IMG/VR virus record: IMGVR_UViG_2728369500_000003
Coordinates: 9,917-73,916 of that record
Length of the DNA stretch: 64,000 bases
Direction: 5' to 3' (one strand)
DNA from: a virus
Taxonomy: Duplodnaviria; Caudoviricetes
The position numbers and the translations under genes are program-made. Shown piece after piece: positions 5,622 to 46,515 of the stretch. Below the pieces are notes generated by a model. It was not told the DNA's origin. It saw only the letters and a list, made by a program, of their open reading frames with translations, and searched no databases. How positions within the stretch are numbered: the stretch's first letter is position 1; each line of letters starts with the position of its first letter.

Positions 5622-5700
5622 TCCTTTTTTTATCGCGTAATAATAAAATTAAACACACAAAACCCACTAAAATTACGATTCAGTCCGTTAAAAACATTTA

Positions 5701-5739
5701 GAGCCTGTTTAAATTTTCTACTCAAATTTAAACAGGCTC
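5701..5739. repeat. Perfect 16-bp inverted repeat (collapsed IS-like ends and/or bidirectional terminator)
   Basis: GAGCCTGTTTAAATTT-7nt-AAATTTAAACAGGCTC; the left arm recurs within a 21-bp direct repeat (5697-5717 = 9226-9246). Confidence 0.7.
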
Positions 5740-5863
5740 CTTCAAGTTCATTGTTGTTATGAACCTTGAATTCCATTTTCTGATCTTTGTATTGTTTGGT
5801 GTCGTCTTTTAGGCTGACCGTTATCTCACGCTTGGCGTTCTGTCTTTCCGTTGTTTGTACTCG

Positions 5864-7027
5864 TCATTTGTTTCCTTTTGCTCTGTTGTGTGTCTTGCAT
5901 AACATTTGGCAATTTTTCGTGTTAGTTGCACCGCCTTTACTCCAAGCTGTTACGTGGTCTGCGTCCATCTCTGCGAGTTTCCAAATTTTAGTTTTATTGC
6001 TGTCATGTCCTAATGCACATAATGGGCAATTTGAAACACTCTTTTTCTCTGCTTCTGCTGTCTGAATAGTATAAACAGATTTTTTTGTCGCATCGTTAAA
6101 AACCCGAATTGCTAAAAGTTTGGTATCTGTTGAACCGCCAAGAACATACTCAAAAATCCCTTTATGATTTTCCACATAGGGGTCAGCATAAAGTGTTTTA
6201 ACTTTTTCGGAAACTTCTTGTGGGTTGTATGGTTGCTTTTTGTAGGTTTCAAAAAGTCGTCCCCATTCAAGTCCACGCATTTCACTTTCTACGTCTATAA
6301 ATACAGTTGAAACCCAGTCAATAACGCTATTAAAATAAGTTTTTAACTCGTTTATGTCAGTGTCATAACGGTGTTTGCTCATATAACCGCCTATATTCCC
6401 TTTGCTTACCCAGTCAAGTGCTCTTTCTAAAAACTCTTGTCTGTTTGCACTACCCGAAACGTAAGCACTCCATTTTTGAATATTGGCATTTTGTGTGTTA
6501 CTAAATTCTTCCTTGCCAAGTGTTACGAAAGGGCCAGAATAAACAGCATTTAGTAATTCTTGATTGTTAAGTGGAACACCAGTAATATTGATTGTCCTAA
6601 ACCATTCTTTAATTTCACTTTCAGTTCCTTCGCACTCGTAAATTAAAAGTTCTGTATTCAATATTTTTTCTTGCTTGTCCTTTGCAATACCTCCAAAATA
6701 TTGCTCCATTCCGCTCTCGTCTTTGATTGCAAATTTGTTAGTTACAAATCTGCCAAAACTTGTAATGCGTTGTTGGCCATCTAAAACTTCAAACTTGTCT
6801 GCACTTAATGTATTGAAATAGATTAGTCCTAATGGATAACCTTTTAAAATGCTTTCAATTACTGCAACATCTCTTTTGCCGTCTGCATAAATATAATTAC
6901 GTTGATACTCCGGCTGAATTGTCAGTTTGCCTGACAAACCAAACAGTCCTTTGCCTTCAAGTTCGTTGTAAACAAAGCCATCGCAAATGGCTTTTACTGT
7001 TATATCTGTTCTAAGAGTAGTTTTCAT
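5864..7027 (-). CDS. DUF262 (GmrSD-family) protein with C-terminal HNH nuclease
   Basis: PEYQR and LDGQQR DUF262 motifs; CPLC...DADH...[13 protein letters not shown] motif. Confidence 0.88.
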
Positions 7028-8194
7028 TTACTTTTTATGTTTTATTAAAACTCTTGCGTAGGGAACTTCAACTACACCATCCAAAATCATATATAAATCC
7101 CCATCAACTGCACCACGCTTCTGAATTTCCTTTCTGTATTTTTTATGTTCAGTTTTATACGGTTGAACTCCGACTTCCAACCCTGAATTTGAAATACCTA
7201 AACCAATAATATCAAATTGATCGGGGTTATACTTATTTAAGAAACTGATAGGAACACCCATTGCACCATCGTAATCGCTTGGTATTGCATCAGTAAAGGG
7301 AACATCAATAGCATCAAAGTTTTCATATTTCTGATATTCTTTCCCTTTTACTTCTTTGTGTTTGCTGAATTTTATATTGTCTTGTTTAGTCATTAAAGGT
7401 AAAGGATCGTGTCGCCTGCCGTGGTCAAGATTTGTGTACCAACCAGTACCAGCAACACTTATCATTTTCTTACCATCACTACTTATTTCAACTTCTGTTC
7501 CGCTCAATTCATAGTCATCTGGAACAAAAAAAGTCATATTCTTACCGTTTATTCTTTGATTGAACCTAACTCCAGTCCATAGTTTATTTTGCTTTATAAG
7601 TGAAAAAATATCTTTGTAAGTTATAGCATTCATATTACCGATGATAACAAAATTCTTTTCAGCCTCAATAATCCAAGCAACAAATTCACGGAATAATGAG
7701 AAAGGAGGATTGGTAATTATTATGTCCGCCTCATTTCTAAGTTTTTTAATTTCTTCACTTCTAAAATCACCATCACCTTTTAAGTAAGACCACTCCAAAT
7801 CATTAACATCAATTTTCCCATCGCCTGATTTGTCACGTGTTAAAGTGAAAATTTTACCATTTTGCTTTGTTTTATATTCGTCAAACTGTGGGTCGTTTAC
7901 TTCAAAAAGTGTCGGTTGATAGTTGTTTTTGATCTTTTTACTTTCAGGTGCGTAACTCGTGCTAATTAGTTTTTTAAGTCCGAAGCGTTCAAAATTTTGA
8001 GCAAAGAACTTTGTGAAGTTGCTCCATTCAGGATCGTCACAAGGTAACAATATGGTTTTACCCTTAAAAACTTTGGGATTATATTCAAGGTAGGCAGACA
8101 TTTCTTTTTCAATATCATGGTATTGAGTATAAAACTCATCCATTTTTGCCTTATTCGCATTCCTTAAATTTTTATTCTTTGCTGTATTCGCCAT
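7028..8194 (-). CDS. Adenine-specific DNA methyltransferase, EcoRI-methylase family
   Basis: DEFYT, ILLPCDDPEWSNF, GDGDFRS, IITNPPFSLFREF motifs; stop abuts the DUF262 start. Confidence 0.88.
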   Translation of the reverse strand: MANTAKNKNLRNANKAKMDEFYTQYHDIEKEMSAYLEYNPKVFKGKTILLPCDDPEWSNFTKFFAQNFERFGLKKLISTSYAPESKKIKNNYQPTLFEVNDPQFDEYKTKQNGKIFTLTRDKSGDGKIDVNDLEWSYLKGDGDFRSEEIKKLRNEADIIITNPPFSLFREFVAWIIEAEKNFVIIGNMNAITYKDIFSLIKQNKLWTGVRFNQRINGKNMTFFVPDDYELSGTEVEISSDGKKMISVAGTGWYTNLDHGRRHDPLPLMTKQDNIKFSKHKEVKGKEYQKYENFDAIDVPFTDAIPSDYDGAMGVPISFLNKYNPDQFDIIGLGISNSGLEVGVQPYKTEHKKYRKEIQKRGAVDGDLYMILDGVVEVPYARVLIKHKK

Positions 8195-8263
8195 TTCTAT
8201 TTATCTCGTCTTTATATTTTTAATGTCGGTTCTGTCTTGCGGTGTCGTTTTTACGCTTGCCTG

Positions 8264-8393
8264 TAATAACGTTTCGAAGCTTTATTAAGCAACTGATTTT
8301 AACCCACTTAATTTCATTTAACACTAACTTCATTTGAAAACCAAATGTTCAATTTAGCATTGAACCCGCCATTTTGCCAAACTGCTATTAGCC
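8264..8393 (-). repeat. attC-like ~130-bp cassette-boundary repeat
   Basis: On the gene strand: GGCTAAT-agcag-TTTGGCAAAATGGCGG ... cgaaac-GTTATTA; overlaps the protease stop and precedes the MTase leader. Confidence 0.5.
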
Positions 8394-9059
8394 GATGTTA
8401 TTCTTTAAAATAATTTCTTTGACGTGTTTTATGTTATAAGTTATTACTATTCCAGAATTTTCAAGGTATTTAATTTCCCCTAATGGTGTGTCAGTAAAAT
8501 TAGTTTGGGGTAAGTAGCCAGAAACAACACTAGTTAATACCATTTTATTTGTTGAGTTTTCATAGTAACCAACAGGTCCTCCAGAAAATCCTGGATTGTT
8601 ATGACCATCTAATAACATAATCGAACTACCATTTGGTTCATGAATATATCCAGAAACAATACATTTTTTGACAAGTGGAATAGGAAAGTTTGTTTTATTT
8701 GTAAAACTTTGATTTAAATTGTAAGGAAAACCTAGAAAGAAAATGTCACCACCAATAACTATATCCTCATCTAACAAAAAAGGAATGTCTTGAACGACTT
8801 TTTGTTGTAATTTAAATACAGCAATATCAACCCCTGATATTTCTGAAATATTTATATTTAAGGAAAATTCAATAAAACCATTATCAGTACGTATTTTGAA
8901 GTTTTTAATTTCTCCATTTTTTGCATTTGGAAATAAATGTTTTGCTGTAATTAGAAATTGGTTATTATTCCATGTAATTATGAAACATGTCCCTACTGAA
9001 GTTTCAAAAATAATATTAAATGTGTTCGTAAAAAATCCTAAAGGTATTGATTTTTCCAT
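8388..9059 (-). CDS. Trypsin-like (S1) serine protease, no signal peptide
   Basis: Catalytic triad motifs TAKH, DIAV, GFSGGP. Confidence 0.85.
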   Translation of the reverse strand: MEKSIPLGFFTNTFNIIFETSVGTCFIITWNNNQFLITAKHLFPNAKNGEIKNFKIRTDNGFIEFSLNINISEISGVDIAVFKLQQKVVQDIPFLLDEDIVIGGDIFFLGFPYNLNQSFTNKTNFPIPLVKKCIVSGYIHEPNGSSIMLLDGHNNPGFSGGPVGYYENSTNKMVLTSVVSGYLPQTNFTDTPLGEIKYLENSGIVITYNIKHVKEIILKNNIG

Positions 9060-9078
9060 AGTTTTTTTTTATAATGTT

Positions 9079-9150
9079 GTCTAACTCTTTTATACTCGCT
9101 ATAAACTAGCGACTATACATCTTAGTTGTGATGAATAGTCGCTACCAAGT
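9079..9150 (-). repeat. attC-like hairpin with GTTAGAC core upstream of the protease
   Basis: GTTAGAC (fits GTTRRRY) at 9085-9079 on minus; 10-bp inverted repeat TAGCGACTAT 9107-9116 / ATAGTCGCTA 9135-9144. Confidence 0.4.
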
Positions 9151-9225
9151 AGCTAATTTTTATCAAAAATACTTTTTTTTTATTTTCCTACAAGTCATCA
9201 AACGGATTTTTATTTGTTGAATACT

Positions 9226-9246
9226 TTTAGAGCCTGTTTAAATTTT
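9226..9246 (+). repeat. 21-bp direct repeat of 5697-5717 (IS-like end)
   Basis: TTTAGAGCCTGTTTAAATTTT at both ends of the 3.6-kb insert. Confidence 0.75.
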
Positions 9247-9310
9247 AGTGGAAAATTTTGTTAAAGCATTTCCGTGAACTTCCTACAAAATCCATTCAGG
9301 AGAAACCTGT

Positions 9311-9354
9311 CAAATATTTGGCAAGTTTTTTTTCTGCTTTCTTTCCTAGTTTTG
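9311..9354 (+). promoter_or_regulatory. Putative late promoter: CAAATATTTGGCAA plus TAGTTTTG -7 box
   Basis: Bacteroidetes TAnnTTTG at 9347-9354, 36 nt after motif start; identical layout at 51820/51856. Confidence 0.65.
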
Positions 9355-9372
9355 AGCTTTAAACAAAGTATT

Positions 9373-9723
9373 ATGAATAAAGAAATTTTCCCAACAGAGC
9401 CCAGCGAAGATGGCTTTTTCTACCAAAGTGAAGAGGAGAAAAACAGCGGCATATTAACCCGGAAATACGACAACGGAAGTGAAGTAAAACACCTTGAACT
9501 CAAGGATGGCCGAAAAGCTTCGGTGAGAAAGCTCAAAGGCCGGGATTTTGTCGAAACCAAGAAAAGAATGCAAAATGATCCTGCCGGTGATTTTGAAACC
9601 ATCAATATGAGTGTAGCCACCACCATAGAGGGAAAACAGCAGCCCCCGGAATTTTATCTCGATGATCTCTTCCAGGATGATTATGCAAAACTCATGATCG
9701 CGTTTTCCTCATTAAATTTTTAA
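9373..9723 (+). CDS. Tail assembly chaperone (P2 gpE-like)
   Basis: Between tube and tape measure; start MNKEIF shared with copy B. Confidence 0.7.
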   Translation: MNKEIFPTEPSEDGFFYQSEEEKNSGILTRKYDNGSEVKHLELKDGRKASVRKLKGRDFVETKKRMQNDPAGDFETINMSVATTIEGKQQPPEFYLDDLFQDDYAKLMIAFSSLNF

Positions 9724-9866
9724 TAGGGCTCAGGGAAATAGCCTTTACAGCGCACTTCTATGGCATATCACCATTAGAGGTAGAACAGTGGTACAGCCGT
9801 GAGATATACCTTTATTATAGAGAAGCGGTAGCCATTCATAATACCTTAAACTCTATCGAAGAATGA
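9717..9866 (+). CDS. -1 frameshift extension of the chaperone (gpE+E'-like)
   Basis: T run 9717-9721 before the stop; -1 frame open 49 codons (IAFTAHFYGISPLEVEQWYSREIY), TGA overlaps tape-measure ATG; conserved in B. Confidence 0.7.
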   Translation, partial: FLIGLREIAFTAHFYGISPLEVEQWYSREIYLYYREAVAIHNTLNSIEE

Positions 9867-12043
9867 ATCATGCAGCTACCGCCGTAACCCTTTTACTCAG
9901 AGCCGATATTTCAGGCGCAGAGTCCGCCATCAGACAACTTGACAGATCTTTCTCCGGCACATTAAGCAGAATCAATGCACAGGGACAATCCTTGATCAAT
10001 AGGGGGAAGAAAATGCAGGAGGCAGGCCTTTCCAACATGGCTGGAGGTGCTGCCATGCTCGCTCCATTAGGTTTAGCCGTAAAACAGGCCATAGAATTAG
10101 AATCAAAAATTGCCGATGTGGCCAAGGTAACCAATGATGATTTTGGAAGTAAAGGGTTTACTGAATTAACCAATAATGCCATCGCTGTTTCTAATCTATA
10201 CGGAGGGGCTGCTACCAGTGTAGCAGAACTCATGGCCGAATTGGCAGCAGGAGGCGTGGCCAAAAAAGAAATTGATGGAGTGGCAAGGTCTGCCAGTAAG
10301 ATTTCTTTCGCCTTTGACATGGCAGCAGGGGAGGCAGCCAAAGGCTATATGGTCATTAAAAATGCCATGGGCATTACCCTAAAAGAAACCGATGCCGTAA
10401 TGGATGCCATGAACGCCGCCACCAACAAATTTGGCGGTAAAGCTTCCAATCTGGTGACTTTTATGGCCAAGGGCGGAGCCTCTGTAGCCAGTACATTAAA
10501 AGTTTCAGGAACTCATATGCAGGCCTTCGGGAATGCCCTGCAGGTTGTAGGACAAAGCGGCGAAGAGTCCGCAACCATCATGAAAAGATTCCAAAAAGCC
10601 ATCATGGGAAATAAGGAGCTCAGCGCGATGTTTGTTAAAGCAGGCGGCGGAGCAAAAGGACTCATCGCTATTTTGGAAAAAGCAAAAGCCAGCGGTAATG
10701 CCTTTAGCTGGCTCAATAAAAGAGATGTCGGTGAATACAGTAACGCGGTAGCTCAATTAGCTGCCAATATGGATACAGCAACCGGAGTCAGAAACCAGCT
10801 TAACTTTCTCTCTAAAAATTCCAATGTGACAGGTAGTGTTCAAAATGAAGCCCAGAACCGCTTAAAAACAACAGGTGCACAATTGGAAATCCTAAAGCAG
10901 CAAACCATCAATGCCGGTATTAAAATAGGAGGCGCTTTATTACCCTCCCTAATGAAGCTGGCTCAGGCTGCAAAACCACTCATAGACAACCTTTCTAAAT
11001 GGATAACAGAAAATCCTAAATTAGTGGAGGGTATTGTAAAAATCATTGCAGCCATTGCCGCTCTAAAGATAGGAGTCGGCGCCTTACAATTTGGACTTGG
11101 AAGTACGATCACCACGATAGGAAAATTTATCACTGGCGGAAGTAAGGCACTAAGTGCCATTTCTAAGTTTTCCTCAACAATAGGACCGCACATCGGTAAA
11201 ACTTTCACAGTAGTGGGCAGAGTTTTTACCAGTATAGGCCCCGCCGCCATAAAAGCCGCTATGGGTCTGGGAAAAGCATTCAGGTTTATTGGGATCGCTT
11301 TTTCCACCGTGTCAAAATTACTCATCGCAAATCCCTGGATACTCTCTCTGACCGCCATTGCAGCAGCAGCCTATCTTATTTATAAAAACTGGGATAAGAT
11401 TTCCACCTGGTTTTCTAAATTATGGACCAAGGTAGCCGCTGTTTTCCGTTCCTATATTAAACTCATATCCGCTCTGCTGATCAAATTCACCCCTGCAGGA
11501 CTGATCTATAAACATTGGGATAAGATAAAAGGATGGTTCTCCTCACTCTGGGGCACTCTAAAAGAACTCTTTAATAAAGGACTGGAAGGCATTAAATTTT
11601 TATTTTTGAATTTCACTCCGCAGGGGCTGATCTACAAACACTGGTCTCCCATTACTGCTTTTTTCCAGAAATTATGGGACAAGGTCAAAGAGATATTCGC
11701 TAAAGCGATCAGTTGGATAAAAAATTCTGCGATAGGCCCATTAATCAGTAAGATGTTAAGTGGCCTGCAAGGAGCCGTGAGCAGTACCCGTTCCGCTCTT
11801 GATTACGCCTCAAAAAATTCTCTGGACGCAACAATTAATCATGTGGGAGGCACTAAAGCGCTCCCTCAACCCAAATCGTATGCCCGAAATCTAAACAGCA
11901 GCATGAGCTTCGCACCGGTGATTAATATAAGCGGCAGTATGGATCAGCCGACCCAACAAAAACTGACCGCCCAGATGCGAAGGGATTTTGAAAAGCAAAT
12001 GGCAGACTACAGTCACGGACAAAAAAGAAAAGGATTCGAATGA
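9863..12043 (+). CDS. Tail tape measure protein
   Basis: 726 aa Ala/Gly-rich, TP901-type core, C-terminal periodic W/F repeats. Confidence 0.92.
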   Translation: MNHAATAVTLLLRADISGAESAIRQLDRSFSGTLSRINAQGQSLINRGKKMQEAGLSNMAGGAAMLAPLGLAVKQAIELESKIADVAKVTNDDFGSKGFTELTNNAIAVSNLYGGAATSVAELMAELAAGGVAKKEIDGVARSASKISFAFDMAAGEAAKGYMVIKNAMGITLKETDAVMDAMNAATNKFGGKASNLVTFMAKGGASVASTLKVSGTHMQAFGNALQVVGQSGEESATIMKRFQKAIMGNKELSAMFVKAGGGAKGLIAILEKAKASGNAFSWLNKRDVGEYSNAVAQLAANMDTATGVRNQLNFLSKNSNVTGSVQNEAQNRLKTTGAQLEILKQQTINAGIKIGGALLPSLMKLAQAAKPLIDNLSKWITENPKLVEGIVKIIAAIAALKIGVGALQFGLGSTITTIGKFITGGSKALSAISKFSSTIGPHIGKTFTVVGRVFTSIGPAAIKAAMGLGKAFRFIGIAFSTVSKLLIANPWILSLTAIAAAAYLIYKNWDKISTWFSKLWTKVAAVFRSYIKLISALLIKFTPAGLIYKHWDKIKGWFSSLWGTLKELFNKGLEGIKFLFLNFTPQGLIYKHWSPITAFFQKLWDKVKEIFAKAISWIKNSAIGPLISKMLSGLQGAVSSTRSALDYASKNSLDATINHVGGTKALPQPKSYARNLNSSMSFAPVINISGSMDQPTQQKLTAQMRRDFEKQMADYSHGQKRKGFE

Positions 12044-12891
12044 TATTTCAATTAGGCAATAAAGAATTTTCAGGCCTCTACGCCCCGGAAGCATGGTCTT
12101 ATTCCGGAAATGAGGCTGTGCTTTCCCAGTATGATTTGATAGGCTCCAAGCCAAGGCTACAATTGGGGAGTGAAACCCTGGAAGAATTATCCCTACAGCT
12201 CACTTTAAGAGCGGATTTCTGCAATATCAATCAGGAATTACAGGATTTTGAAACATGGAAAAGCACAGGAGAAATATTACCCCTGATATTAGGCAATGGG
12301 GAGTATATCAACGATTTTGTACTCAAGTCCGCAGTGAAAACCATCTCGCAGACTTTCAGCGATGGATCCCCTATTGAGATTCAGGTTTCTCTGTCTCTTT
12401 TGGAAGTAGCTAATGATCCTGATAAGAAAAAAATCAATGCAAGGAAAAATGCACGGGCTGTTGGTGATAAACAGCAGATCAATACACTTCCTCCACAGCC
12501 CAAAACCTCAGAAGCACAGGCCCATAAAGCACTCATGGATGCCCAGTTAAAAGCATGGCAGGCCGCTGAAACAGCCAATCAAACCCTCCAAGTGGACAAT
12601 CCCGCTTCTTTATTTGACAAAGTTAAAAACACTCTCGATCAGGCGCAGAATAACATGACCAAAGCAATCGATGCTATTTCTGAGGCGCAGCAGCAGATCC
12701 ATAATGCAGCCGGTATTATTTCAGCCCTTAAAGAGTCTATGGCTCAGCTCACAGAGATTAAAACGGTAATGAAAGAACCTTTCAGAACACAAGACGTAAA
12801 GGCTGCTGTTTTGAATGCACAAAACGGAATCAGGGCGGTTAATACCGCTTCTACCGTATTCACTAATGATATTATTCTAAGAAAAATATAA
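12040..12891 (+). CDS. Tail protein (P2 GpU-like) with coiled-coil C-terminal extension
   Basis: MIFQLG start, KPRLQ..ETLEEL motif, position after tape measure. Confidence 0.65.
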   Translation: MIFQLGNKEFSGLYAPEAWSYSGNEAVLSQYDLIGSKPRLQLGSETLEELSLQLTLRADFCNINQELQDFETWKSTGEILPLILGNGEYINDFVLKSAVKTISQTFSDGSPIEIQVSLSLLEVANDPDKKKINARKNARAVGDKQQINTLPPQPKTSEAQAHKALMDAQLKAWQAAETANQTLQVDNPASLFDKVKNTLDQAQNNMTKAIDAISEAQQQIHNAAGIISALKESMAQLTEIKTVMKEPFRTQDVKAAVLNAQNGIRAVNTASTVFTNDIILRKI

Positions 12892-13112
12892 TAGCCGATA
12901 CGATTCAATATATCACGCAAGATGGAGAGAGATGGGATTCCATTTCCTGGAAAATGTATGGAACCGTGAGAGAAATTCCACGATTAATTTCTGCTAATCC
13001 CCAGGTGCCCATTTCTGAAAGACTAAAAGCAGGGACTGTGCTGGAGGTTCCAGTATTGGAAAGTTACAACCTAAAAACCGAAAAAGACCAATTACCACCA
13101 TGGAAACGCTAG
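12891..13112 (+). pseudogene. Tail protein X (P2 gpX-like) with start codon ATG changed to ATA
   Basis: Frame intact and homologous to 55400-55621 (YITQDGERWDSI) but first codon is ATA. Confidence 0.65.
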
Positions 13113-14155
13113 ATCAGATATACATCAAAGTCCTTTATAATGGTAAAAACATTACCGCAGATGTAAGCAAAAGCCTCATGTCTTTGGGGTATACAGATCA
13201 TATGTCCGAGGCAGATACTCTGGACATTACCCTGGAGGATTCTGAGTGTAAATGGCAGAGTGAGTGGTATCCCGAGAAAGGTGCAAAGATCACTGCTCAA
13301 ATCGGTATTGCAGGAGGTGAAGTCTTAGATTGCGGAATCTTTGAAATTGATGAGATTGAATTGTACGGCAGCCCCGATGCAGTCAATATACGCTGTATCG
13401 CAGCCGGATTTAAACAGGGACAGAAAAGAACCCTAAAAAGCCATGTTCACGAAAAGAAAACCCTTTCTCAGATCGTGCATACCATCGCAGCAGATCTAGG
13501 GTTAAAAGTCATTGGCAATGTGAGCCAGGTAAAAGTAGAGAGGCTCGTTCAGCAGAAAAAAGGCAATCTGACCACGCTCAAAAAACTCGCTTCCAGATAC
13601 GGCTATACCTTCAATGTCAGGGATCAGAATTTAATTTTTATTAAAAACGAAGAATTGGAGGGTAAACAGGCCGTAGCCTATTTCGATAAAACGGATCTAA
13701 TCAGCTTCTCTTTAACGGATAGAACTTTTGGCACCTATAGCTCCGCATCTATCAGGTTTCACAATCCGGAAGCAGGATCCATTATTGAGTATAAGACCTC
13801 AGAGGGAGGACTCCCCAATTCAGATGATGTCCTACATTTAGAACAGAGCGTAGATAGTATCGAGCAGGCACAGCAGATCACAAAATCAGCCCTCCGGGAA
13901 GCTAATAAAATGCAGCAATCAGGAAATATTGCCCTTCCCGGATCTGTGGTTCTGATAAGCGGCAATATCATTTCCCTGCATCGCCTGGGAAGACTTTCCG
14001 GGGATTATCTGATCAAAAGTGCTTCTCATACCTTGAGCAGTACCAGCGGCTGGCTGGTAGATGCAGAGATCTATAAAGTAGGATATAAGGAGGAGCTAGA
14101 AAAACAGACCGAAAGAAATACCCCGAAAAAAAATAAAAAAGACAGCAGCCAGTAA
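13100..14155 (+). CDS. Late control D / baseplate hub protein
   Basis: YTDHMSEADTLDITL, DCGIFEIDEIE motifs; P2 gene order. Confidence 0.85.
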   Translation: METLDQIYIKVLYNGKNITADVSKSLMSLGYTDHMSEADTLDITLEDSECKWQSEWYPEKGAKITAQIGIAGGEVLDCGIFEIDEIELYGSPDAVNIRCIAAGFKQGQKRTLKSHVHEKKTLSQIVHTIAADLGLKVIGNVSQVKVERLVQQKKGNLTTLKKLASRYGYTFNVRDQNLIFIKNEELEGKQAVAYFDKTDLISFSLTDRTFGTYSSASIRFHNPEAGSIIEYKTSEGGLPNSDDVLHLEQSVDSIEQAQQITKSALREANKMQQSGNIALPGSVVLISGNIISLHRLGRLSGDYLIKSASHTLSSTSGWLVDAEIYKVGYKEELEKQTERNTPKKNKKDSSQ

Positions 14156-14205
14156 GTTTTAATGATAAAGCCAACTGGAGAATCCTTAAAAAATTGGCCA
14201 CCACA

Positions 14206-14691
14206 ATGCTAAAATTCGGATTTATAACAGAAATAGACCACGCTAAAGGGTGTGTCAGAGTGAACTTTGCCAGCGATCAGATCGTCAGCAATCCCCTGCC
14301 GGTATCTGTACCGGCTTCAAAAAAGGACAAATACACATTCCCATTTTCAATCAATGAGCAGGTATGGTGCCTGATGGATGAAAACTGTGAATTCGGAGTC
14401 GTGGGCGGCGCCATCTATTCCCAGAAAGATTTCCCGCCACAAGGAGCCCGTGAAGATAAGCTCATCACAGAAATGAACGATGGTACATTTAGACTGGAAA
14501 TTGATAAAGCAAGCGGGAAATTCAAGATCAGCAATCCCGAAGTTAGTTTTAAGGAATTGTTTGAGGATTTAAAAATACTCATTGAAAACCTCAAAGTCAA
14601 AACATCCTCAGGACCCAGCGCAGGACTCCTGCCCGATACCATAGAGCGATTAAACCAGTTCGAACAGAAATACGAAAAAATACTATCCTGA
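14206..14691 (+). CDS. Baseplate spike protein (gpV-like)
   Basis: MLKFGFITEID.AKGCVRV, PFSINEQVWCLMD OB-fold motifs. Confidence 0.8.
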   Translation: MLKFGFITEIDHAKGCVRVNFASDQIVSNPLPVSVPASKKDKYTFPFSINEQVWCLMDENCEFGVVGGAIYSQKDFPPQGAREDKLITEMNDGTFRLEIDKASGKFKISNPEVSFKELFEDLKILIENLKVKTSSGPSAGLLPDTIERLNQFEQKYEKILS

Positions 14692-14912
14692 TGCCATTAG
14701 ATAAAAATACATTAAAAACCGAAATTAAAGCCATTCTATCCGATATGGAAAACAAAGAAACGGACAGCAAAGAAGAATTTGCCCAAAGACTTTCAGAGGC
14801 TATTGATGCATTTGTTAAGAGCGCTACGGTTACGGTCGCTGCGGGAATTCCGGTAACAACCTCCGGCGGATCGGGCTCTACTTCAGAGCAAGGAACTGGA
14901 ACCATCTCCTAA
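14691..14912 (+). CDS. Small conserved baseplate-region protein
   Basis: 73 aa, conserved in B (57203-57424). Confidence 0.6.
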   Translation: MPLDKNTLKTEIKAILSDMENKETDSKEEFAQRLSEAIDAFVKSATVTVAAGIPVTTSGGSGSTSEQGTGTIS

Positions 14913-14915
14913 AGG

Positions 14916-14959
14916 CAAATATTCAGCAAAAATTTTCCCGGCACAAGACATTAAGTTTG
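14916..14959 (+). promoter_or_regulatory. Putative late promoter: CAAATATTCAGCAA plus TAAGTTTG -7 box
   Basis: 36-nt spacing; same at 57428/57464. Confidence 0.6.
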
Positions 14960-14963
14960 CCCT

Positions 14964-15881
14964 ATGCAAGTGAGCGATATCCCAACAAAAAACTGGCAGT
15001 TAGACCTTAACAATGCAGGTAAAATTGTAGCCGGATATGATGATATTCAGCAGTGTATTGCTATTATTCTGCGCACCCGAAAAGGAGAAGACCCCCTAAG
15101 ACCAGACTTTGGAAGTGATATCTGGAAATGGCTCGATAAACCCATATCTGCCTCAATTCCCAACATGAAAAGAGAAATTATTCAGGCCCTGCAATCATAT
15201 GAACCCCGAATAACCATCCAAAAAATTGTCCATGAAATGGATATAACAGAGGGCAAAAGCAATATTATTTTTGGGATTACCTACAAAACCGGAGAGAATT
15301 ACACAGGTACCTTTCAGTATCACCTGAAACAGGACACCAGGCCTTTGGCTCTTTCCGCATCCTACCTGCCTGATGCATTCCTCTATTTTATTGAGATGTC
15401 TTTACAGGGTGGGGAGGTTACTCCAGCGAGTCCACAAAATGGATTCCTGTCTATTAATGAAATGATGAAATGGGTACATCAATTTTGGGGAAATCTGGGC
15501 AATTGGTATCTACTCATCCAGGAAAACAAGGTGATTGTGTATATCAATACCCAATTAGGAGCATCCGGTAAATTGACCGTCACAAGTGTTACAAGTGAAT
15601 TACACGCACCATTTCCAGAGAGATACGATCTTATCAATTACAATATCATATTTAAGAAAGACGGACGCAGAATAGCTCCCTGGAATTCAGAAGGCTTTCA
15701 GACCGAAAATGAAGCGTTGAATTTCGTAAGTCAGCAATACAAAGACTATGGGAAGTGGATCTTAAAAGACAATTATTTAGTGCTCATAGCAAGTGAGCCT
15801 TTAGATGGCTGTACGTTAGAAATTAACCTATTAACAAAAGGGGCTTTTAGCTCTGATTTTAATGAAGACTTTGAAATATAA
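14964..15881 (+). CDS. Baseplate wedge gp25/GpW-family protein with long C-terminal extension
   Basis: ILRTRKGEDPLRPDFGS...YEPRI gp25 motifs in the first ~115 aa. Confidence 0.8.
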   Translation: MQVSDIPTKNWQLDLNNAGKIVAGYDDIQQCIAIILRTRKGEDPLRPDFGSDIWKWLDKPISASIPNMKREIIQALQSYEPRITIQKIVHEMDITEGKSNIIFGITYKTGENYTGTFQYHLKQDTRPLALSASYLPDAFLYFIEMSLQGGEVTPASPQNGFLSINEMMKWVHQFWGNLGNWYLLIQENKVIVYINTQLGASGKLTVTSVTSELHAPFPERYDLINYNIIFKKDGRRIAPWNSEGFQTENEALNFVSQQYKDYGKWILKDNYLVLIASEPLDGCTLEINLLTKGAFSSDFNEDFEI

Positions 15882-16984
15882 TGGAAGCACCTGAATTTAT
15901 AGATATAGACCCTGAAACCATTATCCGCGAGATAAAATCGGACTACGAGCAGATGACCGGCAGTACCCTTTATCCCGGACAGGTAGAACAATTGCTGATT
16001 AATGCTTTGGCCTATCGGGAAGTCTTATTAAGAACACAGATTCAAAATGCCGCAACACAGAATCTGGTAGCCTTCAGCTCTGCCCCCTTTTTAGATTTCC
16101 TGGGAGATCTGGTCGGCGTAAAAAGACTTCCACCTTCTAAGGCTTTCGTTCAGGTAAAAATGAAATGTACGCCAGGACACGGAGTTCTCACCATACCAAA
16201 GGGCATTAGAATACAGGCTAATAATACCGGGGAGGTCTTTGCTCTCATGGAGGATGTGACCCTTCAGGCTGATGAAGATGAAAAAACAGCATCATTTGTC
16301 AGTGTGAATAACGGCGCACAGGCTAATGGATTGAATCCCGGGGAAATATCAATCATATTAGACCCTCAGCCTTATCTCTTCTCGGTAACCAACATCAATA
16401 CATCCACAGGCGGAAGCAATGAAGAATCGGACGAAGCTTTGCGAGAGCGTATTACCCTGGCTCCACAATCTTTCAGCAATGCCGGAAGCCGCGGAGCGTA
16501 TGCCTTTTTTGCACGCAGCGCCAATGCAGCAATTATGGATGTAGGAATCACCTCCCCTCTTCCCGGTCAGGTTAATATTTATCCATTAATGAAAGACGGA
16601 GAATTACCCAGCCAGGCCGTTTTGGACCAGGTAAAGATCGCATGCAGCGATGAAAAAGTACGACCCCTCACAGACACAGTTATCGTACTGCCCCCTACCG
16701 CTAAAAGTTACCAGATTGATGTTGATCTCACATTAATCACAGGGGCTTTAAGTTCGGAAGTTATCGCTATGGTACATGATAAACTCATCAATTATGCCAG
16801 CAGCAGGAAGATGAAAACAGGACTTGACGTGGTTATCGAAAAAATTATAGGAGAAGCCATGAAAGTAGATTCTGTGTATGAGGTAAAGGTAAATTCACCT
16901 TTATCGACAATCCTTGTCGGTGAAGATCAGGTAGCCCTATGCTCGGGGGTCAATGTTAAAGTAACAGGATATAGCGATGAATAA
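15881..16984 (+). CDS. Baseplate J-like protein
   Basis: GGSNEESDEALRERI, FSNAGSRGAY, VRPLTDTV motifs. Confidence 0.9.
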   Translation: MEAPEFIDIDPETIIREIKSDYEQMTGSTLYPGQVEQLLINALAYREVLLRTQIQNAATQNLVAFSSAPFLDFLGDLVGVKRLPPSKAFVQVKMKCTPGHGVLTIPKGIRIQANNTGEVFALMEDVTLQADEDEKTASFVSVNNGAQANGLNPGEISIILDPQPYLFSVTNINTSTGGSNEESDEALRERITLAPQSFSNAGSRGAYAFFARSANAAIMDVGITSPLPGQVNIYPLMKDGELPSQAVLDQVKIACSDEKVRPLTDTVIVLPPTAKSYQIDVDLTLITGALSSEVIAMVHDKLINYASSRKMKTGLDVVIEKIIGEAMKVDSVYEVKVNSPLSTILVGEDQVALCSGVNVKVTGYSDE

Positions 16985-17609
16985 TATACTGCCCGAGAGC
17001 TTGCAGCAACCCCATATCATCGCTTTTGACCTTTTGGCAAAAAAGCGCTTTAATGCCATAGAGCTAGATACCCTGCTGGTCTACATGATTGATTCCGTAC
17101 CGGAATCAGTCCTAAGAACATTAGCGATTCAGTTTGATCTCATGGGCTACAATGGATGGAAACTCGCAGACACCACCGAAAAGAAAAGAGACCTTATCAA
17201 AAGAGGAATTGAGCTTCACAGGTATAAAGGGACGCTCTGGGCCATCAAAGAAGCCCTGAGAACAGTAGGATTTCCTGATGCAACCATTACAGAGCATGTA
17301 AACCACTGGGCAGGATTTACCATTGAACTGGGTATTGGGCAGAATGCTGTAGATCCACAGCGTATTGAAGATGCCCTGGCCATGGTCAAAGCCTATAAGA
17401 ATGAACGATCACATCTCATGGGATTTGAATTTAAACTCGATTTCCAGGAAATGCTTTCATTGGTCGATGACAGCTATGAAGCTCCCGGAATAGAAAGTGA
17501 AGATGCTCTATTCTTAGGGGGTGACTTTATATATGACGGCACCTACACCTACAATGGTGAAAAAAATTACAACAACGACAACGATGTTTTAGAAATCATA
17601 ATAAACTGA
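16977..17609 (+). CDS. Tail protein I (P2 gpI-like)
   Basis: LHRYKGTLWAIKEAL motif; follows J. Confidence 0.85.
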   Translation: MNNILPESLQQPHIIAFDLLAKKRFNAIELDTLLVYMIDSVPESVLRTLAIQFDLMGYNGWKLADTTEKKRDLIKRGIELHRYKGTLWAIKEALRTVGFPDATITEHVNHWAGFTIELGIGQNAVDPQRIEDALAMVKAYKNERSHLMGFEFKLDFQEMLSLVDDSYEAPGIESEDALFLGGDFIYDGTYTYNGEKNYNNDNDVLEIIIN

Positions 17610-17610
17610 G

Positions 17611-18051: not shown

Positions 18052-18052
18052 A

Positions 18053-19030: not shown

Positions 19031-19031
19031 G

Positions 19032-30071: not shown

Positions 30072-30080
30072 ATTATAATT

Positions 30081-42118: not shown

Positions 42119-43566
42119 AATTAAATTTACTCGATAAAGTAGTTTCTTATTTCAGTCCGCAGTGGGGACTAAAAAGAATACAGCGGCGTAATGCAATGGA
42201 TATCCTACAAAGAGGGTATGAAGGAGCACGAAAAGACCGCCGTACCAAAGGATGGAATGTGAATGATTTTGAACAGGCCGCAAAACTAGCCGAAATTAAA
42301 ACCCTGAAAAACAGAAGCAGGGACCTCTACCGAAACAACCCCTATTCTTTCCGGGCTCACAATTCCATTGCCAACAATACCACCGGAAGAGGCATTGTTC
42401 CGGCCATTAAAAATGAACTGCTAAAAAAAATCTGGAAGGACTGGGCCCATCAGACCTCAGTGGATTTTGACGCCAATTGTAATTTTTATGGATTACAGAA
42501 CCTTTGCATGAGAACACTCTCTATGCATGGTTCAGTACTCATCTTAAGAATTAAAACCAATAATAAAGAACATATTCCATTAGAACTCAAGGTGGTTTCC
42601 ACTAAATTTTTAGACCTCTCAAAAGATACCATAAAAACTTCCACCGGGTCATATATTTCCGGGGGAATTGAGTTTGCTTCCACCGGAAAAAGGAAAGGAT
42701 ACTGGATTTACGATAAGGATCCGGAGCTGGAATATTCTAAAAGCACATTTTGGAAAGATCAGGATGTGATCCATCTCTTTTTCCAGGACGAACCCGGGCA
42801 GATCCATGGAGTTCCATTTGGTTCTCCCTCCATGATGAGCTTAAGAGATTTTGACGATTATTCGGATGCGCAGCTGGTAAGACAAAAGATCGCCTCCTGC
42901 TTCTCCATATTCATCACCAAGACAGATGCTGAAATGATCGGGGCAGACACCCAGGATTATGAAGAGTTTGACAGGGTGGAACCAGGGCTCATTCAGACCT
43001 TAGAGCCAGGCAAATCGGTCACTTTTGCTTCCCCTCCTCCCGCAGACGGGTATGGCGAATATTCCAAAAACGTCCTTACAGGTATTTCAGCAGGCTACGG
43101 CATGAGCTATGAAGCCATGACAGGAGATTTAAGCCATGTCAATTACTCCAGCGGACGCATGGGGTGGTTAGAATACCAAAGAATGATTGAGACATGGCAG
43201 AATTTTATTCTCATCCCTAAATTATGCGCGAAAGTATGGCTTTGGTTTGTAGAGGCAGGAAATTTATTAGGCATTCTTCCCAAAGACACGCCTAAAACAG
43301 TGGAATGGACCGCCCCGGGTAGAATGATGATTGACCCTGTAAAAGAAGTGAACGGACTTTTAGCACAGGTAAGAGCCGGATTTATGAGCTGGCAGGAAGC
43401 CGTAAGACTTTTAGGCTATGCCCCGGAAGAAATTCTGGAAGAGATGAAAATTTCTAAAGAATTATTTGACAAGGCAGGCCTTCACCCAAAATCAGATCCC
43501 CGATATGATGCGGTAAATCTAAAAAATCAGAGTAATGATACAGGTAACAATAGCACACACCAGTAA
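42109..43566 (+). CDS. Portal protein (lambda family)
   Basis: RSRDLYRNNPY, YEAMTGDLSHVNYSSGRMG, IDPVKE motifs. Confidence 0.93.
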   Translation: MSLELNLLDKVVSYFSPQWGLKRIQRRNAMDILQRGYEGARKDRRTKGWNVNDFEQAAKLAEIKTLKNRSRDLYRNNPYSFRAHNSIANNTTGRGIVPAIKNELLKKIWKDWAHQTSVDFDANCNFYGLQNLCMRTLSMHGSVLILRIKTNNKEHIPLELKVVSTKFLDLSKDTIKTSTGSYISGGIEFASTGKRKGYWIYDKDPELEYSKSTFWKDQDVIHLFFQDEPGQIHGVPFGSPSMMSLRDFDDYSDAQLVRQKIASCFSIFITKTDAEMIGADTQDYEEFDRVEPGLIQTLEPGKSVTFASPPPADGYGEYSKNVLTGISAGYGMSYEAMTGDLSHVNYSSGRMGWLEYQRMIETWQNFILIPKLCAKVWLWFVEAGNLLGILPKDTPKTVEWTAPGRMMIDPVKEVNGLLAQVRAGFMSWQEAVRLLGYAPEEILEEMKISKELFDKAGLHPKSDPRYDAVNLKNQSNDTGNNSTHQ

Positions 43567-44212
43567 TGGCCTCAACTTTTTGCAGAGACAATTAGAGGAC
43601 AGAAATCTTAAGAAAGCCAGCACAAGGGCCCTAAATAAAGCAATTGCAAAAGGTAACACCCATTATAGGCGAATGATTTCTGAATATTATAACATTAAGC
43701 CTATTGATATCAGAAATTCTATTGTGCTGAAAAAAGCAACCTATTCACAGAATGAGGCTTCTATCTCAGGAAATTTCAAACCCTTGAGCTTATCCAGGTT
43801 TGGTCCACAGTTTGTTAATGGCCGAAGTGTTATTTCTATTCGCTCGGTGAGAAATAAAGAAACAGGAAGAAGAACTTTACAGCAAAGAACCCGAAATGCA
43901 AGGAAAAACGAGCAAGCCGGTGGAGGGGTTTCTATTGAGATCAAAAAAGGAAGCAGAAAAGTTATTCCTTATGCTTTCTTAACAAAATCATCGGCAAATA
44001 CCGGAGTTGAAAAACAAATTTTTGCCAGAGGAAAATACGCCGGAGGAAAATTCGAGAAAGCAAAAGAAAGATTCCCCATTACCGCCATGAAAACCACTTC
44101 TGTTTTTGGGATTTTGACTAATGACCCTATTCAAAGAAAAATAGAAACAGAATCTAAAGAAACTCTGCAAAGAGAGTTTGAAAGACAAATTTATTTATTA
44201 ATAAGAAGATAA
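43535..44212 (+). CDS. Minor tail/neck protein (GpZ-like)
   Basis: Basic protein, RALNKA motif, follows the portal. Confidence 0.55.
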   Translation: MIQVTIAHTSNGLNFLQRQLEDRNLKKASTRALNKAIAKGNTHYRRMISEYYNIKPIDIRNSIVLKKATYSQNEASISGNFKPLSLSRFGPQFVNGRSVISIRSVRNKETGRRTLQQRTRNARKNEQAGGGVSIEIKKGSRKVIPYAFLTKSSANTGVEKQIFARGKYAGGKFEKAKERFPITAMKTTSVFGILTNDPIQRKIETESKETLQREFERQIYLLIRR

Positions 44213-44308
44213 CGTTTCGCTGTTTTGCAAAGTGGCGGATTGTATGCACAACTGTTGATACGAAGCAGTTCGCATTCATACACCTCACATTGGCGAGGCA
44301 TTATAGGC
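44208..44308 (-). repeat. attC-like ~100-bp repeat whose GTT core coincides with the phage junction
   Basis: Minus: GCCTATAAT ... CCGCCACTTTGCAAAA-cagcgaaac-GTTATC; homology with copy A ends at the shared AAC (335/44213). Confidence 0.55.
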
Positions 44309-44339
44309 AGGCTACCTGTCAGCGTACTATTGACCGACC

Positions 44340-45311
44340 TTAACCAATAAACAACTGATTTGAGAAAAGAGAGTGAGGTGCGGATACTAAATTAATATCA
44401 AACTTTAAAGATGGCTCAATCCGAGAACTTGCATTATGAATACGGAAAGAAATTTGCCAACCTTCACTTAACGTTACTAAAATAGTTGTCTTTGAATTAT
44501 CTTGGTAAACTACTTCAATCAAACGGTTTGGTAGTTTCAGACGCTGAATTTTTGCTTTTGGTTTTACGCTTTCAAAAGGTAAATTCAATGTTCCGTGTAA
44601 ATTATAGGCTTGAATTTCGACCTTGTTTTTACCTTTTATGACTTTGTAAAAATCTTGATTACCAATCAAATACTTAATTAAATTTTCGGCTACAATTCCA
44701 GGGTTTTCGTTATCCAAACGCAATAATTCTTTCTTAAAAGCATCCAAAACAGGAACATAAACGGATGTATGATAATCGCCTAAGGTATCCCATTTTTGGG
44801 TTGCTTTGCTTGCTGTTCTCAGCTTTGCCAAATTATCGAAAACAGGTTTGACTTCTTGGAAATATTCAGCAGAACAAGGAAAGCCTAACCACTTTTGACC
44901 AAAATCAATATCGTTTGACAAACGAGAATGTTTTACGGCTCTATGATTGTTTTTTGCCGAAACTCCTATTTCCCATTTTTGCAATGAGCGAATAGCCAAA
45001 ACATCGCGAACATCACCGGTTTGACCAGCTTTGTCGGCTACAATCTCGAGTTGTAGAATATCTTCATCACTAATTCCGTTTGATAAACGTGGCTCAATAT
45101 CAAGTAAAAAATTTACCGCAAAACTTGCCACTAATTTGTAATGACTTTGTTCCTTTTCGTCAAAGCTTGTAAAACATTTCAAAGCAGTTTTGTAAGGTTC
45201 ATTTTCAACAAATGAAACAGAAGTTAGCACTCTTAAACGTTCTAAAAACTCGATTAGCAAAGCATATTCAAATGCTTTTCCGTTTATGGTTTGGGTTGCA
45301 ATTTTTGACAT
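44340..45311 (-). CDS. haeIIIR: HaeIII-family type II restriction endonuclease
   Basis: NGKAFEY, GDVRDVL, GVSAKNNHRAVKHSRLS motifs; TAATG overlap with the C5 MTase. Confidence 0.8.
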   Translation of the reverse strand: MSKIATQTINGKAFEYALLIEFLERLRVLTSVSFVENEPYKTALKCFTSFDEKEQSHYKLVASFAVNFLLDIEPRLSNGISDEDILQLEIVADKAGQTGDVRDVLAIRSLQKWEIGVSAKNNHRAVKHSRLSNDIDFGQKWLGFPCSAEYFQEVKPVFDNLAKLRTASKATQKWDTLGDYHTSVYVPVLDAFKKELLRLDNENPGIVAENLIKYLIGNQDFYKVIKGKNKVEIQAYNLHGTLNLPFESVKPKAKIQRLKLPNRLIEVVYQDNSKTTILVTLSEGWQISFRIHNASSRIEPSLKFDINLVSAPHSLFSNQLFIG

Positions 45312-46402
45312 TATACTGTTACTCGGTTTACAATTTCATTCAGTTTTTCAATTACAACATTTCCATTGTATTCAGTAGAAATAGGTTTTTGAACAACTTT
45401 ATTAATAACGTTCAAATGATCTAAATCAGCATAAATCTTTTCTGCCAAAATCACACCCATTCTAACAGGAACAGCATTTCCAATCATTTTGTAACCAGCG
45501 GATACACTGCTATATTCAAATGAAAAAGTATCCGGAAAAGTTTGAATTCTTGCACATTCCCGAACACTTAATCTTCGATATAAATGTTCTTGACCTTTCA
45601 CAAATTCACGCAAATTTTGTTCAATAAGTTTCATTTTTGGAGCTTGTGGGTGGATTGGTGCATGACGACCACCAGCTTGGATTGTAAATGACACTTCATC
45701 CCAAGAGCGAACCCTATTTCTTGACATAAACATCGACGAAAAACCACCAATCATATATTCATGGTTTGATACTTTGCAGTCTTTTCCATTGGTATAGTTC
45801 CCTTCTTTTGCAGGTAAGGCAGTATCTTTTAAATCACTAATTGCTTTTTCAAGAGTAATTTTGTTTTCTAACGTTGTGGGTCTTGGAAAGGTGAATTTAA
45901 TTCCCAAATCTTTACGATAACCTATAAAAAAAACACGTTTCCTATCTTGTGGAACGCCATAATCTGAGACATTCAATAACTGAAATGACAAGTCGTAGCC
46001 TATATCAGTAAACATCTGTTTTATGTTTGCTAACGCTTCTTTATGAGCAGGCAACAACATTCCAGACACATTTTCAGCCAAGAAAAATTTAGGTTTCTTA
46101 TCTGCTAAAATTCGCATAAATTCATAAAAAAGCTGACCTCTTTTATCTGCAATTCCTCGCTTTGAACCAGCCTCCGACCAGCTTTGACAAGGAGGTCCGC
46201 CAATAATTCCATCACAATCAGGAACTTCATTTGATGGAATATCGACAATACTTCTTCTATCTAAAATTGTGTTTTTATGGTTCTTTTCATAGGTTGCCCA
46301 AATTTCTTTATCATATTCATTTGCCCAAACGACATCAAAACCAGCTTTCTCAAACCCTAAATCAAGACCACCTGCACCTGCAAAAAACGATACGACTTTC
46401 AT
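45311..46402 (-). CDS. haeIIIM: C5-cytosine DNA methyltransferase, M.HaeIII-like (likely GGCC)
   Basis: FAGAGG, GGPPCQSWS, ENV, QDRKRVF, YKMIGNAVP; ANEYDK..W.TYEKNH and LSVRECARIQ segments as recalled for M.HaeIII. Confidence 0.88.
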   Translation of the reverse strand: MKVVSFFAGAGGLDLGFEKAGFDVVWANEYDKEIWATYEKNHKNTILDRRSIVDIPSNEVPDCDGIIGGPPCQSWSEAGSKRGIADKRGQLFYEFMRILADKKPKFFLAENVSGMLLPAHKEALANIKQMFTDIGYDLSFQLLNVSDYGVPQDRKRVFFIGYRKDLGIKFTFPRPTTLENKITLEKAISDLKDTALPAKEGNYTNGKDCKVSNHEYMIGGFSSMFMSRNRVRSWDEVSFTIQAGGRHAPIHPQAPKMKLIEQNLREFVKGQEHLYRRLSVRECARIQTFPDTFSFEYSSVSAGYKMIGNAVPVRMGVILAEKIYADLDHLNVINKVVQKPISTEYNGNVVIEKLNEIVNRVTV

Positions 46403-46483
46403 ACCTTGGAAATTTAATTATTCAACAACAAACTTACTAATTTAAAAACATTTCGCCCAAATTATGAGCGGGAAAATTGACCA

Positions 46484-46515
46484 GTCTATAACAAGAGTTT
46501 TGCATAATGGCGGTG
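46484..46515 (+). repeat. Truncated attC-like half site
   Basis: GTCTATAAC-aagag-TTTTGCATAATGGCGG, 14/16 identical to the arms at 44223-44238 and in the 8264-8393 repeat; cut by the phage promoter motif at 46516. Confidence 0.5.

Follow-up and report, generated by a model that had tools for sequence, protein, structure and literature searches.

Different antisense restriction-modification cassettes in the late-operon gaps of three sibling Bacteroidota prophages, upstream of putative late promoters

Analyses of a 64,000-nucleotide stretch of viral DNA (the window; positions 9,917 to 73,916 of IMG/VR record IMGVR_UViG_2728369500_000003) indicated that it is composed of two tandem members, prophages A and B, of one uncharacterised family of temperate phages of Bacteroidota. 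The window corresponded to C1:3955465-4019464 of a 5.09-Mb Chryseobacterium-like genome. A third sibling, prophage C, was located in the same genome 3.1 Mb from A and B (C1:831676-861141; L004 and L005, also in IMG/VR as L088), with a late region 93-95% identical to theirs. These siblings are a clear example of related prophages that carry different, antisense restriction-modification (R-M) cassettes in the short gaps that separate a virion operon from the promoter of the following one. We consider it likely, at a probability of roughly 0.7, that such gaps are tolerated cargo bays, each lying between an operon end and the next late promoter.

Comparison of the window with itself by BLAST aligned positions 1-335 with 43879-44213 (94.6% identity), 389-5629 with 46516-51756 (96.0%) and 9295-21491 with 51804-64000 (93.7%). 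The aligned blocks were of near-equal length, with no further notable indel over ~17.4 kb, so the sole structural differences between A and B were the gap between the GpZ-like gene and the capsid gene (slot 1) and that between the tube gene and the tail chaperone gene (slot 2). The original prediction, made from the sequence of the window, had described in each prophage a minus-strand module that was missing from the other and AT-richer than the virion genes, and all of this was borne out. Prophage A had 3.66 kb of its own (5630-9294) where B had 47 nt, and B had 2.30 kb of its own (44214-46515) where A had 53 nt. The GC content was 0.33 in module A and 0.35 in module B versus 0.42-0.44 in the virion genes; based on the host genome value of 0.36, the cargo was host-like, and the GC-rich outliers were the virion genes rather than the cargo.

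Slot 1 had three unrelated alleles among the siblings: A was empty, B had a HaeIII-type R-M cassette and C a type IIG-like gene. The left breakpoint between A and B was the stop codon of the GpZ-like gene, whose 3' end in A (2-334, plus strand, TAA at 332-334) and full copy in B (43535-44212, plus strand, TAA at 44210-44212; Pfam Minor_tail_Z) are both in the window, and homology started again exactly at the motif TGTCAAATATTT discussed below. The empty allele of A was a 53-nt spacer (335-388) with a small hairpin and a T-run directly before the promoter, and it had no sequence kinship with the alleles of B or C. The cargo of B (44214-46515, minus strand) comprised genes for a HaeIII-family restriction endonuclease (REase; 44340-45311; RE_HaeIII, 3e-98) and a 5-methylcytosine methyltransferase (MTase; 45311-46402; DNA_methylase, 2e-97), had its own -7 box (TAAGTTTG, 46436-46429), and lay between imperfect 17-nt direct repeats (44222-44238 and 46497-46513, 15/17 identical). 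The insert of C encoded, also antisense, an 863-aa type IIG-like protein in which HSDR_N nuclease, N6 methylase and specificity domains are fused (L004:7634-10225), and its flanks broke at the same two nucleotides as those of B. A separate 17-nt sequence, ACCTCACATTGGCGAGG, was present inside the B insert near its left end (44282-44298) and, inverted, at the right end of the C insert just before the promoter (C1:849519-849536), and was absent elsewhere in the genome.

Slot 2 also had three alleles among the siblings, being filled in A, empty in B, and empty in C with A-type flanks. The left breakpoint of A versus B was 8 nt past the tube stop codon and the BLAST alignment started again 13 nt before TGTCAAATATTT; versus C, the A insert began ~95 nt after the tube stop and ended ~60-80 nt upstream of the motif, at the end of an insertion sequence (IS). 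The claim that homology resumes exactly at the motif was therefore correct for slot 1 but not for slot 2. The empty allele of B (51749-51816) was a short spacer, different from the flanks of A and C, with a terminator-like hairpin overlapping the tube stop codon; terminator-like hairpins were likewise found at the cargo 3' ends.

By its gene content and homology, module A consists of two cargo units, an R-M pair and a peptidase. The first (5833-8266, minus strand) encoded a GmrSD_N/HNH type II REase (5864-7027) and an EcoRI-family MTase (7028-8194), assigned by Pfam and by PADLOC (REase_II ~1e-85, EcoRI_methylase ~1e-128); the type II R-M open reading frames (ORFs) were full length against their profiles. 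The second (8388-9059, minus strand) encoded a 223-aa trypsin-like peptidase with weak N-terminal similarity to LmuA/HamA, and had its own -7 box (TATTTTTG, 9171-9164). The junction of the two units (8266-8382) contained the 11-mer ATAACGTTTCG (8266-8276), which recurs without a mismatch at the left junction of module B (44209-44219), and also, in inverted orientation, the repeat flanking module B (8366-8382). Nucleotide homology of the R-M pair to unrelated contigs was confined to 5833-8266, its upstream limit falling within ATAACGTTTCG. The REase (DUF262/HNH) was 83-94% identical to proteins source-assigned to Cloacimonas, Ignavibacteria, Chloroherpetonaceae, Brumimicrobium and Chryseobacterium, a spread across phyla that would imply very recent, wide horizontal transfer of the cassette. 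Elsewhere the pair stood alone, in one case in a chromosome among housekeeping genes and in another beside an IS91, an integrase and a group II intron, and no protease adjoined it in those contigs.

The ends of module A were those of an IS5-family element. At the cargo 3' end, two terminal inverted repeats of this element, the left (IRL) and the right (IRR), lay back to back as a 41-nt palindrome (5700-5740, minus strand), which on the minus strand could fold into a hairpin with a 17-bp stem and a T-run after it, so that the cargo operon would end in a terminator-like structure. The 21-mer TTTAGAGCCTGTTTAAATTTT, which is the terminal inverted repeat of the element, bracketed the A insert as a direct repeat (5697-5717 and 9226-9246), the right copy being part of the 36 nt that are left of the right IS end (9226-9264), and its single copy within the A-type flanks of C marks the empty site. 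Based on the IS ends at 5700-5740 and the right-end remnant shared by A and C, these two prophages are set apart by a clean indel at the IS end, and the insertion point of module A was set by the IS-end remnant and not by the motif. The intact element (L255, G000:C1:929850-930850, and 12 further places) was 854 bp long with a 17-nt terminal inverted repeat, GAGCCTGTTTAAATTTT, and a 255-aa transposase (DDE_Tnp_1, 9e-19; DUF4096, 1e-18). It is probably active in this genome, which contained 13 copies at 99.5-100% identity and also ~190-bp derivatives resembling miniature inverted-repeat transposable elements (C1:1004209-1004401 and C5:4714-4906). The IS5-family repeats bracketing module A recall the IS-flanked cargo of a composite transposon. 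Unlike such a transposon, however, slot 2 contained only the IRL+IRR palindrome and the IRR remnant, the 21-mers were direct repeats, and no transposase gene was found in the slot.

The motif TGTCAAATATTT was found at 389, 9308, 46516 and 51817, with the variant CAAATATTCAGCAA at the third site of each prophage (14916/57428). A 14-mer, CAAATATTYRGCAA, had nine matches in the whole genome, all on the sense strand and all at three operon starts in each of the three siblings, where they preceded the capsid gene, the tail chaperone gene and the first baseplate gene. The motif was a direct repeat with an 11-bp period (nCAAA-N6-GCAAr), and at every sibling site the 17-mer was followed after exactly 22 nt by a Bacteroidetes -7 box or near-box (TAnnTTTG or TTnnTTTG). 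Promoters of the Bacteroidetes sigma-A type have a -33 element, TTTG, and a -7 element, TAnnTTTG. No -33 TTTG was found at the sibling sites, where the phage-specific direct repeat occupied that position, an arrangement that fits an activator-dependent promoter.

The three sites in each prophage, all on the plus strand, are termed P1, P2 and P3. In A, P1 (389-442) had its motif at 389-405, the box TTGCTTTG at 428-435 and the capsid ATG at 440; P2 (9308-9375) had its motif at 9308-9324, the box TAGTTTTG at 9347-9354 and the chaperone ATG at 9373; and P3 (14913-14966) had its motif at 14913-14929, right after the stop codon at 14910-14912, with the box TAAGTTTG at 14952-14959 and the ATG at 14964. 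In B, P1 (46516-46569) had its motif at 46516-46532, the box TTGTTTTG at 46555-46562 and an ATG at 46567, and P2 (51817-51863) and P3 (57425-57478) matched a composite pattern (half-site, N6, half-site, 20-22 nt, box), which had 20 matches in the genome, nine of them the sibling sites. The ATG followed the box after 4 nt at P1, 18 nt at P2 and 4 nt at P3, and this spacing makes 440 the probable start of the capsid gene and 9373 that of the chaperone gene. The operon downstream of P1 in A extended from the protease-gpT fusion capsid gene to the tube gene (440-5621, plus strand; sheath 3675-5090, tube 5097-5621), as assigned by Pfam (Phage_capsid_4, Mu-like_gpT and Peptidase_S78; Phage_tube) and by synteny in relatives. 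The virion genes are best explained as forming at least three operons, each headed by an activator-type late promoter. We also observed that the capsid and baseplate start codons were just 4 nt past the -7 box (428-442, 14952-14966 and 46555-46569; 5351-5365 in L168), a spacing at which the late mRNAs would be leaderless or nearly so.

The layout of these sites was kept in relatives, although their sequence was not. The exact motif was not found in any relative, but when relatives were aligned on the -7 box each had an 11-bp-period direct repeat ending 21 nt before the box, with a phage-specific half-site and spacer: GCAAGcagaacGCAAG before the capsid and baseplate genes of L168, GCAATcaaaccGCAAG at the same two places in L013 (the two sites being 16/16 identical), GCAAGaaaagcGCAAA and GCAAAcaaaaaGCAAA before the chaperone gene of L251 and L254, and GCAAAtaactcGCAAA before the capsid gene of L250. 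The same repeat-plus-box layout was found in L089, L017 and L019. A position that is conserved, a sequence that turns over, and sites that evolve in concert within one genome look like an operator for a phage-encoded activator. Together with the fixed spacing to the box and the restriction to three sites per prophage, these observations agree with the assignment of the motif as a late promoter in the original prediction, and it is very probably an activator-dependent one. As a general function, we rejected that of a mere terminator for the motif: its copies in slot 1, slot 3 and all relatives were direct repeats with no T-runs. Only the slot-2 copy was a hairpin, being palindromic and followed by T8, and it may double as a terminator.

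Late promoters of the Mu Mor/C type and the P2 Ogr type lack a normal upstream element. Each late operon of those phages instead has a copy of a phage-specific operator, which overlaps the -35-equivalent position or lies just before it. The sites described here are similar in having a phage-specific operator in the upstream-element position, repeated at late operons. They differ from the Mu and P2 promoters in that the operator is a direct repeat with an 11-bp period and not a dyad, the core is a Bacteroidetes -7 box, and no homologue of Mor, C or Ogr was found among the early genes of B.

We surveyed gene junctions in ~40 non-redundant loci with a tube protein identity of at least 55%, drawn from GTDB metagenome-assembled genomes (MAGs), IMG/VR, JGI metagenomes and Logan contigs, and mostly labelled Weeksellaceae, Chitinophagales or Sphingobacteriales. 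These sources were used because named genomes offered too few relatives: searches for the tube protein detected the family in one of 400 sampled genomes of the Weeksellaceae and, within the genus, in none of the 239 other species. No cultured phage was nearer than ~50% sheath identity, the level shared with P2-like and phiE255-like phages. Variable cargo was found at both slots. The gap between the GpZ-like and capsid genes was large in one of eight loci (L168, with an antisense HicB-like gene), and that between the tube and chaperone genes in 5 of 15, with antisense morons in two of these 15. The tube-chaperone inserts included three sense genes, one for an M15 endolysin, plus antisense HicA and a helix-turn-helix partner in L254; a sense glucosaminidase gene plus an antisense ClpP/SDH-type protease gene in L008; and a 165-aa sense ORF in the L009 group. 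The sense occupants of slot 2 thus include two endolysin genes (L254 and L008), and a Chitinophagales-type relative had a short gap there, with a tRNA-Met directly after the tube gene (L092, 5311-5383; L096, 5258-5330).

Other lineages used other boundaries. Between the tape measure and gpU genes, 5-7 of 25 loci had a large gap, containing an antisense GmrSD/HEC-05 gene in L092, a sense gene for an 826-aa HSDR_N and P-loop NTPase protein in L015 and L172, and small antisense ORFs in L017 and L019; in L096 versus L092, homology started again 51 nt before the gpU start, at the promoter-like bipartite motif of that lineage. Large sense ORFs preceded the sheath gene in 4 of 29 loci, and large gaps were present in two loci between gpU and gpD and in two between gpD and the next gene. 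PADLOC gave no match for the sense inserts before the sheath gene (L095, L101, L105 and L185) or for the gpU-gpD insert of L112, and these were not counted as defence. At the tightly packed junctions (the head-completion genes, sheath to tube, and baseplate J-I onwards), no gap exceeded 127 nt in 22-39 loci each. The inserts were therefore confined to few boundaries and the tightly coupled junctions were never filled. Between the chaperone and tape measure genes, apparent gaps of 370-480 nt containing small antisense ORFs were left out of the cargo count, as they are most likely a frameshift extension of the chaperone gene, like that of P2 E/E'.

Defence-, toxin-antitoxin- or protease-type units were antisense in eight of nine independent cases. 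The three sibling cassettes fitted PADLOC R-M models; among relatives, only GmrSD/HEC-05, a weak mad8 and HicAB (by Pfam) were matched, and many inserts had no match. The proposal that the gap upstream of each promoter is a slot for swappable anti-phage cargo consequently held in part. These gaps were the sole structural difference of the siblings, C added a third allele, and relatives had variable cargo, but the cargo of relatives also included lysis genes, tRNA-Met and ORFs of no recognised type. Similarly, the proposed family-wide hotspot architecture was reflected in the clustering of inserts at few operon boundaries, but not in occupancy (slot 1 in one of eight relatives, antisense morons at slot 2 in 2 of 15) nor in the particular promoters named, given the use of the tape measure-gpU boundary and the sense inserts before the sheath gene. 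The bays would be operon boundaries in general, with lineages differing in those that they use.

We propose that the spacer that begins where an operon ends, at its stop codon or terminator, and reaches to the next promoter would be the sole dispensable DNA of the late region, and that foreign cassettes landing there would be kept because they leave translational coupling and promoter function intact. Each cassette appears to bring a host-type promoter and a terminator-like hairpin of its own, and the cassettes face away from the late genes, an antisense layout that would let a lysogen express them with no read-through into lethal late genes. We infer from these hairpins and -7 boxes that the downstream virion genes may be insulated from the cargo. 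Judged by their homologies, the cassettes would act in the restriction of incoming phages or in stabilising the prophage. Their delivery would not depend on one dedicated mechanism, module A lying between IS5-family ends and module B between short imperfect direct repeats, and alleles could also be exchanged by homologous recombination in the conserved flanks.

Several observations weigh against cargo bays defined in this way. The relatives are few and mostly MAG fragments, and occupancy among them was low. In L014 versus L015 the break replaced the promoter-like region as well, and the 826-aa defence-like insert of L015 was in sense orientation. Some inserts of relatives were at junctions with no recognised motif (before the sheath gene and between gpU and gpD). 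The roles of promoter and terminator are assigned from sequence and conservation, and no late activator (Mor, C, Ogr or sigma factor) was found among the early genes of B with Pfam and PHROGs. Finally, slot 3 has a promoter and is essentially never used. As predicted, the third promoter gap was unused in A, where it had no spacer, and at most one of 26 relatives had a large gap there (with one 104-aa antisense ORF). The emptiness of a site that has a promoter and no spacer indicates that a promoter alone does not make a bay.

Among other explanations, it is possible, if doubtful, that the slots are boundaries of mosaic modules, at which siblings and relatives trade whole operons by homologous recombination and the cargo rides along, the different slots of each sibling being due to recombination among co-resident prophages instead of independent insertions. 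The tube boundary is also a point at which gene order changes in relatives (in L250 and L012 the next genes after the tube are baseplate genes, and in L248 a repressor gene and early genes), the early regions of the siblings were mosaic, and A and C shared slot-2 flanks with the IS remnant while the B spacer was different. Exchange of this kind would, however, leave the first arrival of each cassette unexplained, and both the IS ends and the promiscuity of the R-M pair suggest that cassettes were acquired de novo; it is also compatible with tolerated cargo bays rather than opposed to them. As a separate observation, rearranged late regions were noted at 3334-5204 and 10651-11862 in L248, which also had an integrase gene and an inverted GpZ-like gene beside its capsid gene, and at 10678-13254 in L250.

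We regard as unlikely that the cassettes are selfish addiction modules (R-M, HicAB) which persist where they do least harm and stabilise the prophage, with no selection for defence. The 83-94% identity of the A-type REase/MTase pair across several phyla, in unrelated chromosomal and mobile contexts, would be expected of such modules, and toxin-antitoxin pairs were found in the same slots of relatives; the GmrSD and nuclease-NTPase proteins of relatives, on the other hand, are not addiction modules. The two roles are not exclusive, and a type II R-M system, wherever it came from, restricts incoming DNA.

It is quite improbable that site-specific, integron-like or otherwise sequence-directed capture set the position of the cargo, with CGAAAC joined to GTTAT/GTTAC and the repeats GTTTTGCAWARTGGCGG as recombination sites and the closeness to promoters incidental. 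The 11-mer ATAACGTTTCG shared by the left junction of B and the inter-unit junction of A, where homology to the R-M contigs stops, and the 15/17 repeat around module B with its inverted copy inside module A would suit such capture, but the insert of C and those of relatives lacked these repeats, which were not a genome-wide family. Membership of the attC/integron class was rejected: five cassette 3'-end regions folded no better than shuffled sequences (z = 0.1, -1.7, -2.3, -0.6 and +1.5) and gave no end-to-end, attC-like hairpin, and the boundaries GTTATTA, GTTACAG and GTTATCT did not fit the core GTTRRRY. The only recombinases seen were the prophage tyrosine integrase and the IS transposase, and no integron integrase was seen; in the window, only the prophage Phage_integrase (30709-31986) was seen, its IntI-specific patch not having been examined. 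Less credible still is that the CGAAAC/GTTAY junction and the 17-nt GTTTTGCAWARTGGCGG repeats represent a new sequence-directed system of cassette capture that needs neither integron integrase nor attC, with arrival of the cassettes directed by sequence instead of filtered by selection. If true, such a system would place defence genes, R-M among them, in the bays just before late promoters of a class not yet described in Bacteroidota phages.

Other features were noted outside the slots. At the right end of prophage A (21941-30587) was an operon for a Por_Secre_tail protein of the type IX secretion system and a 2242-aa SpvB/FG-GAP/RHS-repeat protein; diverged copies (74-85% at the nucleotide level) followed siblings B and C, a fourth locus was at C1:1006840-1014426, and this site is a further position of variable cargo. 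About 1 kb comprising the 3' part of the B integrase gene and its flank (30671-31650) was repeated beyond the right end of B (C1:4029222-4030198, 95%), and ARAGORN identified no tRNA genes in the window. In L008, a Chitinophagales prophage, a short repeat family resembling GTCGTCTGTCGTCC occurred in most intergenic gaps (e.g., at 3959, 4758, 6895, 8393, 13488 and 13674).

By its gene content, the family has a contractile tail of the P2/phiE255 type and a head of the Mu gpT type. The tail resembles that of P2-like phages (Peduoviridae) in its FI/FII sheath and tube, gpU, gpX and gpD, and baseplate proteins J and I, with Phage_tube identified in the window and Phage_sheath_1, Phage_P2_GpU, Phage_tail_X, Baseplate_J and Tail_P2_I in relatives. 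Unlike P2, there was no gpN/gpO head, and no Ogr was found among the early genes of B; the head comprised portal_2, a GpA terminase of the lambda type, and a Mu gpT/Phage_capsid_4 protein that forms a fusion with an S78 protease.

The pattern described here is the Bacteroidota counterpart of the known P2/P4 defence hotspots and of classical morons, and its most original element is the late-promoter architecture. Like morons of lambdoid and other temperate phages, a concept said to go back to Hendrix and Juhala, the cassettes appear to be autonomous units between phage genes, with their own promoter and terminator, a deviating base composition and, presumably, expression in the prophage; classic morons commonly have the same orientation as the late genes, whereas the defence-type units were antisense in almost all cases. 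Moron genes of temperate phages have also been cited in connection with P2-type hotspots (PMC9122126), which are loci of ~1-5 kb between two conserved phage genes with fast turnover of content, including R-M and other defence systems (PMC9122126; PMC13586616), and of which a P2 phage may have several, some within tail genes (PMC13586616). Slots 1 and 2 share the small variable locus (47 nt to 3.7 kb) between conserved core genes, the R-M content, the presence of several per phage, and the turnover among close relatives, as the siblings were 94-96% identical in the flanks and further alleles were found in L168, L254, L008, L009 and L092/L096. The differences are a Bacteroidota host, a Mu-type head, no recognisable Ogr or Cox, and the locations, which are gpA-gpQ or downstream of gpL in the P2-type hotspots and GpZ-capsid, tube-chaperone and tape measure-gpU here. 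In addition, a stop codon and a defined late promoter fix the limits of the bay in the present family to the nucleotide.

Together, these data indicate that the hotspot and moron logic of enterobacterial P2/P4 extends to this uncharacterised family of Bacteroidota phages, for which the three co-resident siblings provide a natural swap experiment. The promoter layout offers a testable model of late gene control in temperate phages of Bacteroidota, a poorly known subject, and the putative promoter would be a practical landmark for locating cargo bays in related prophages.

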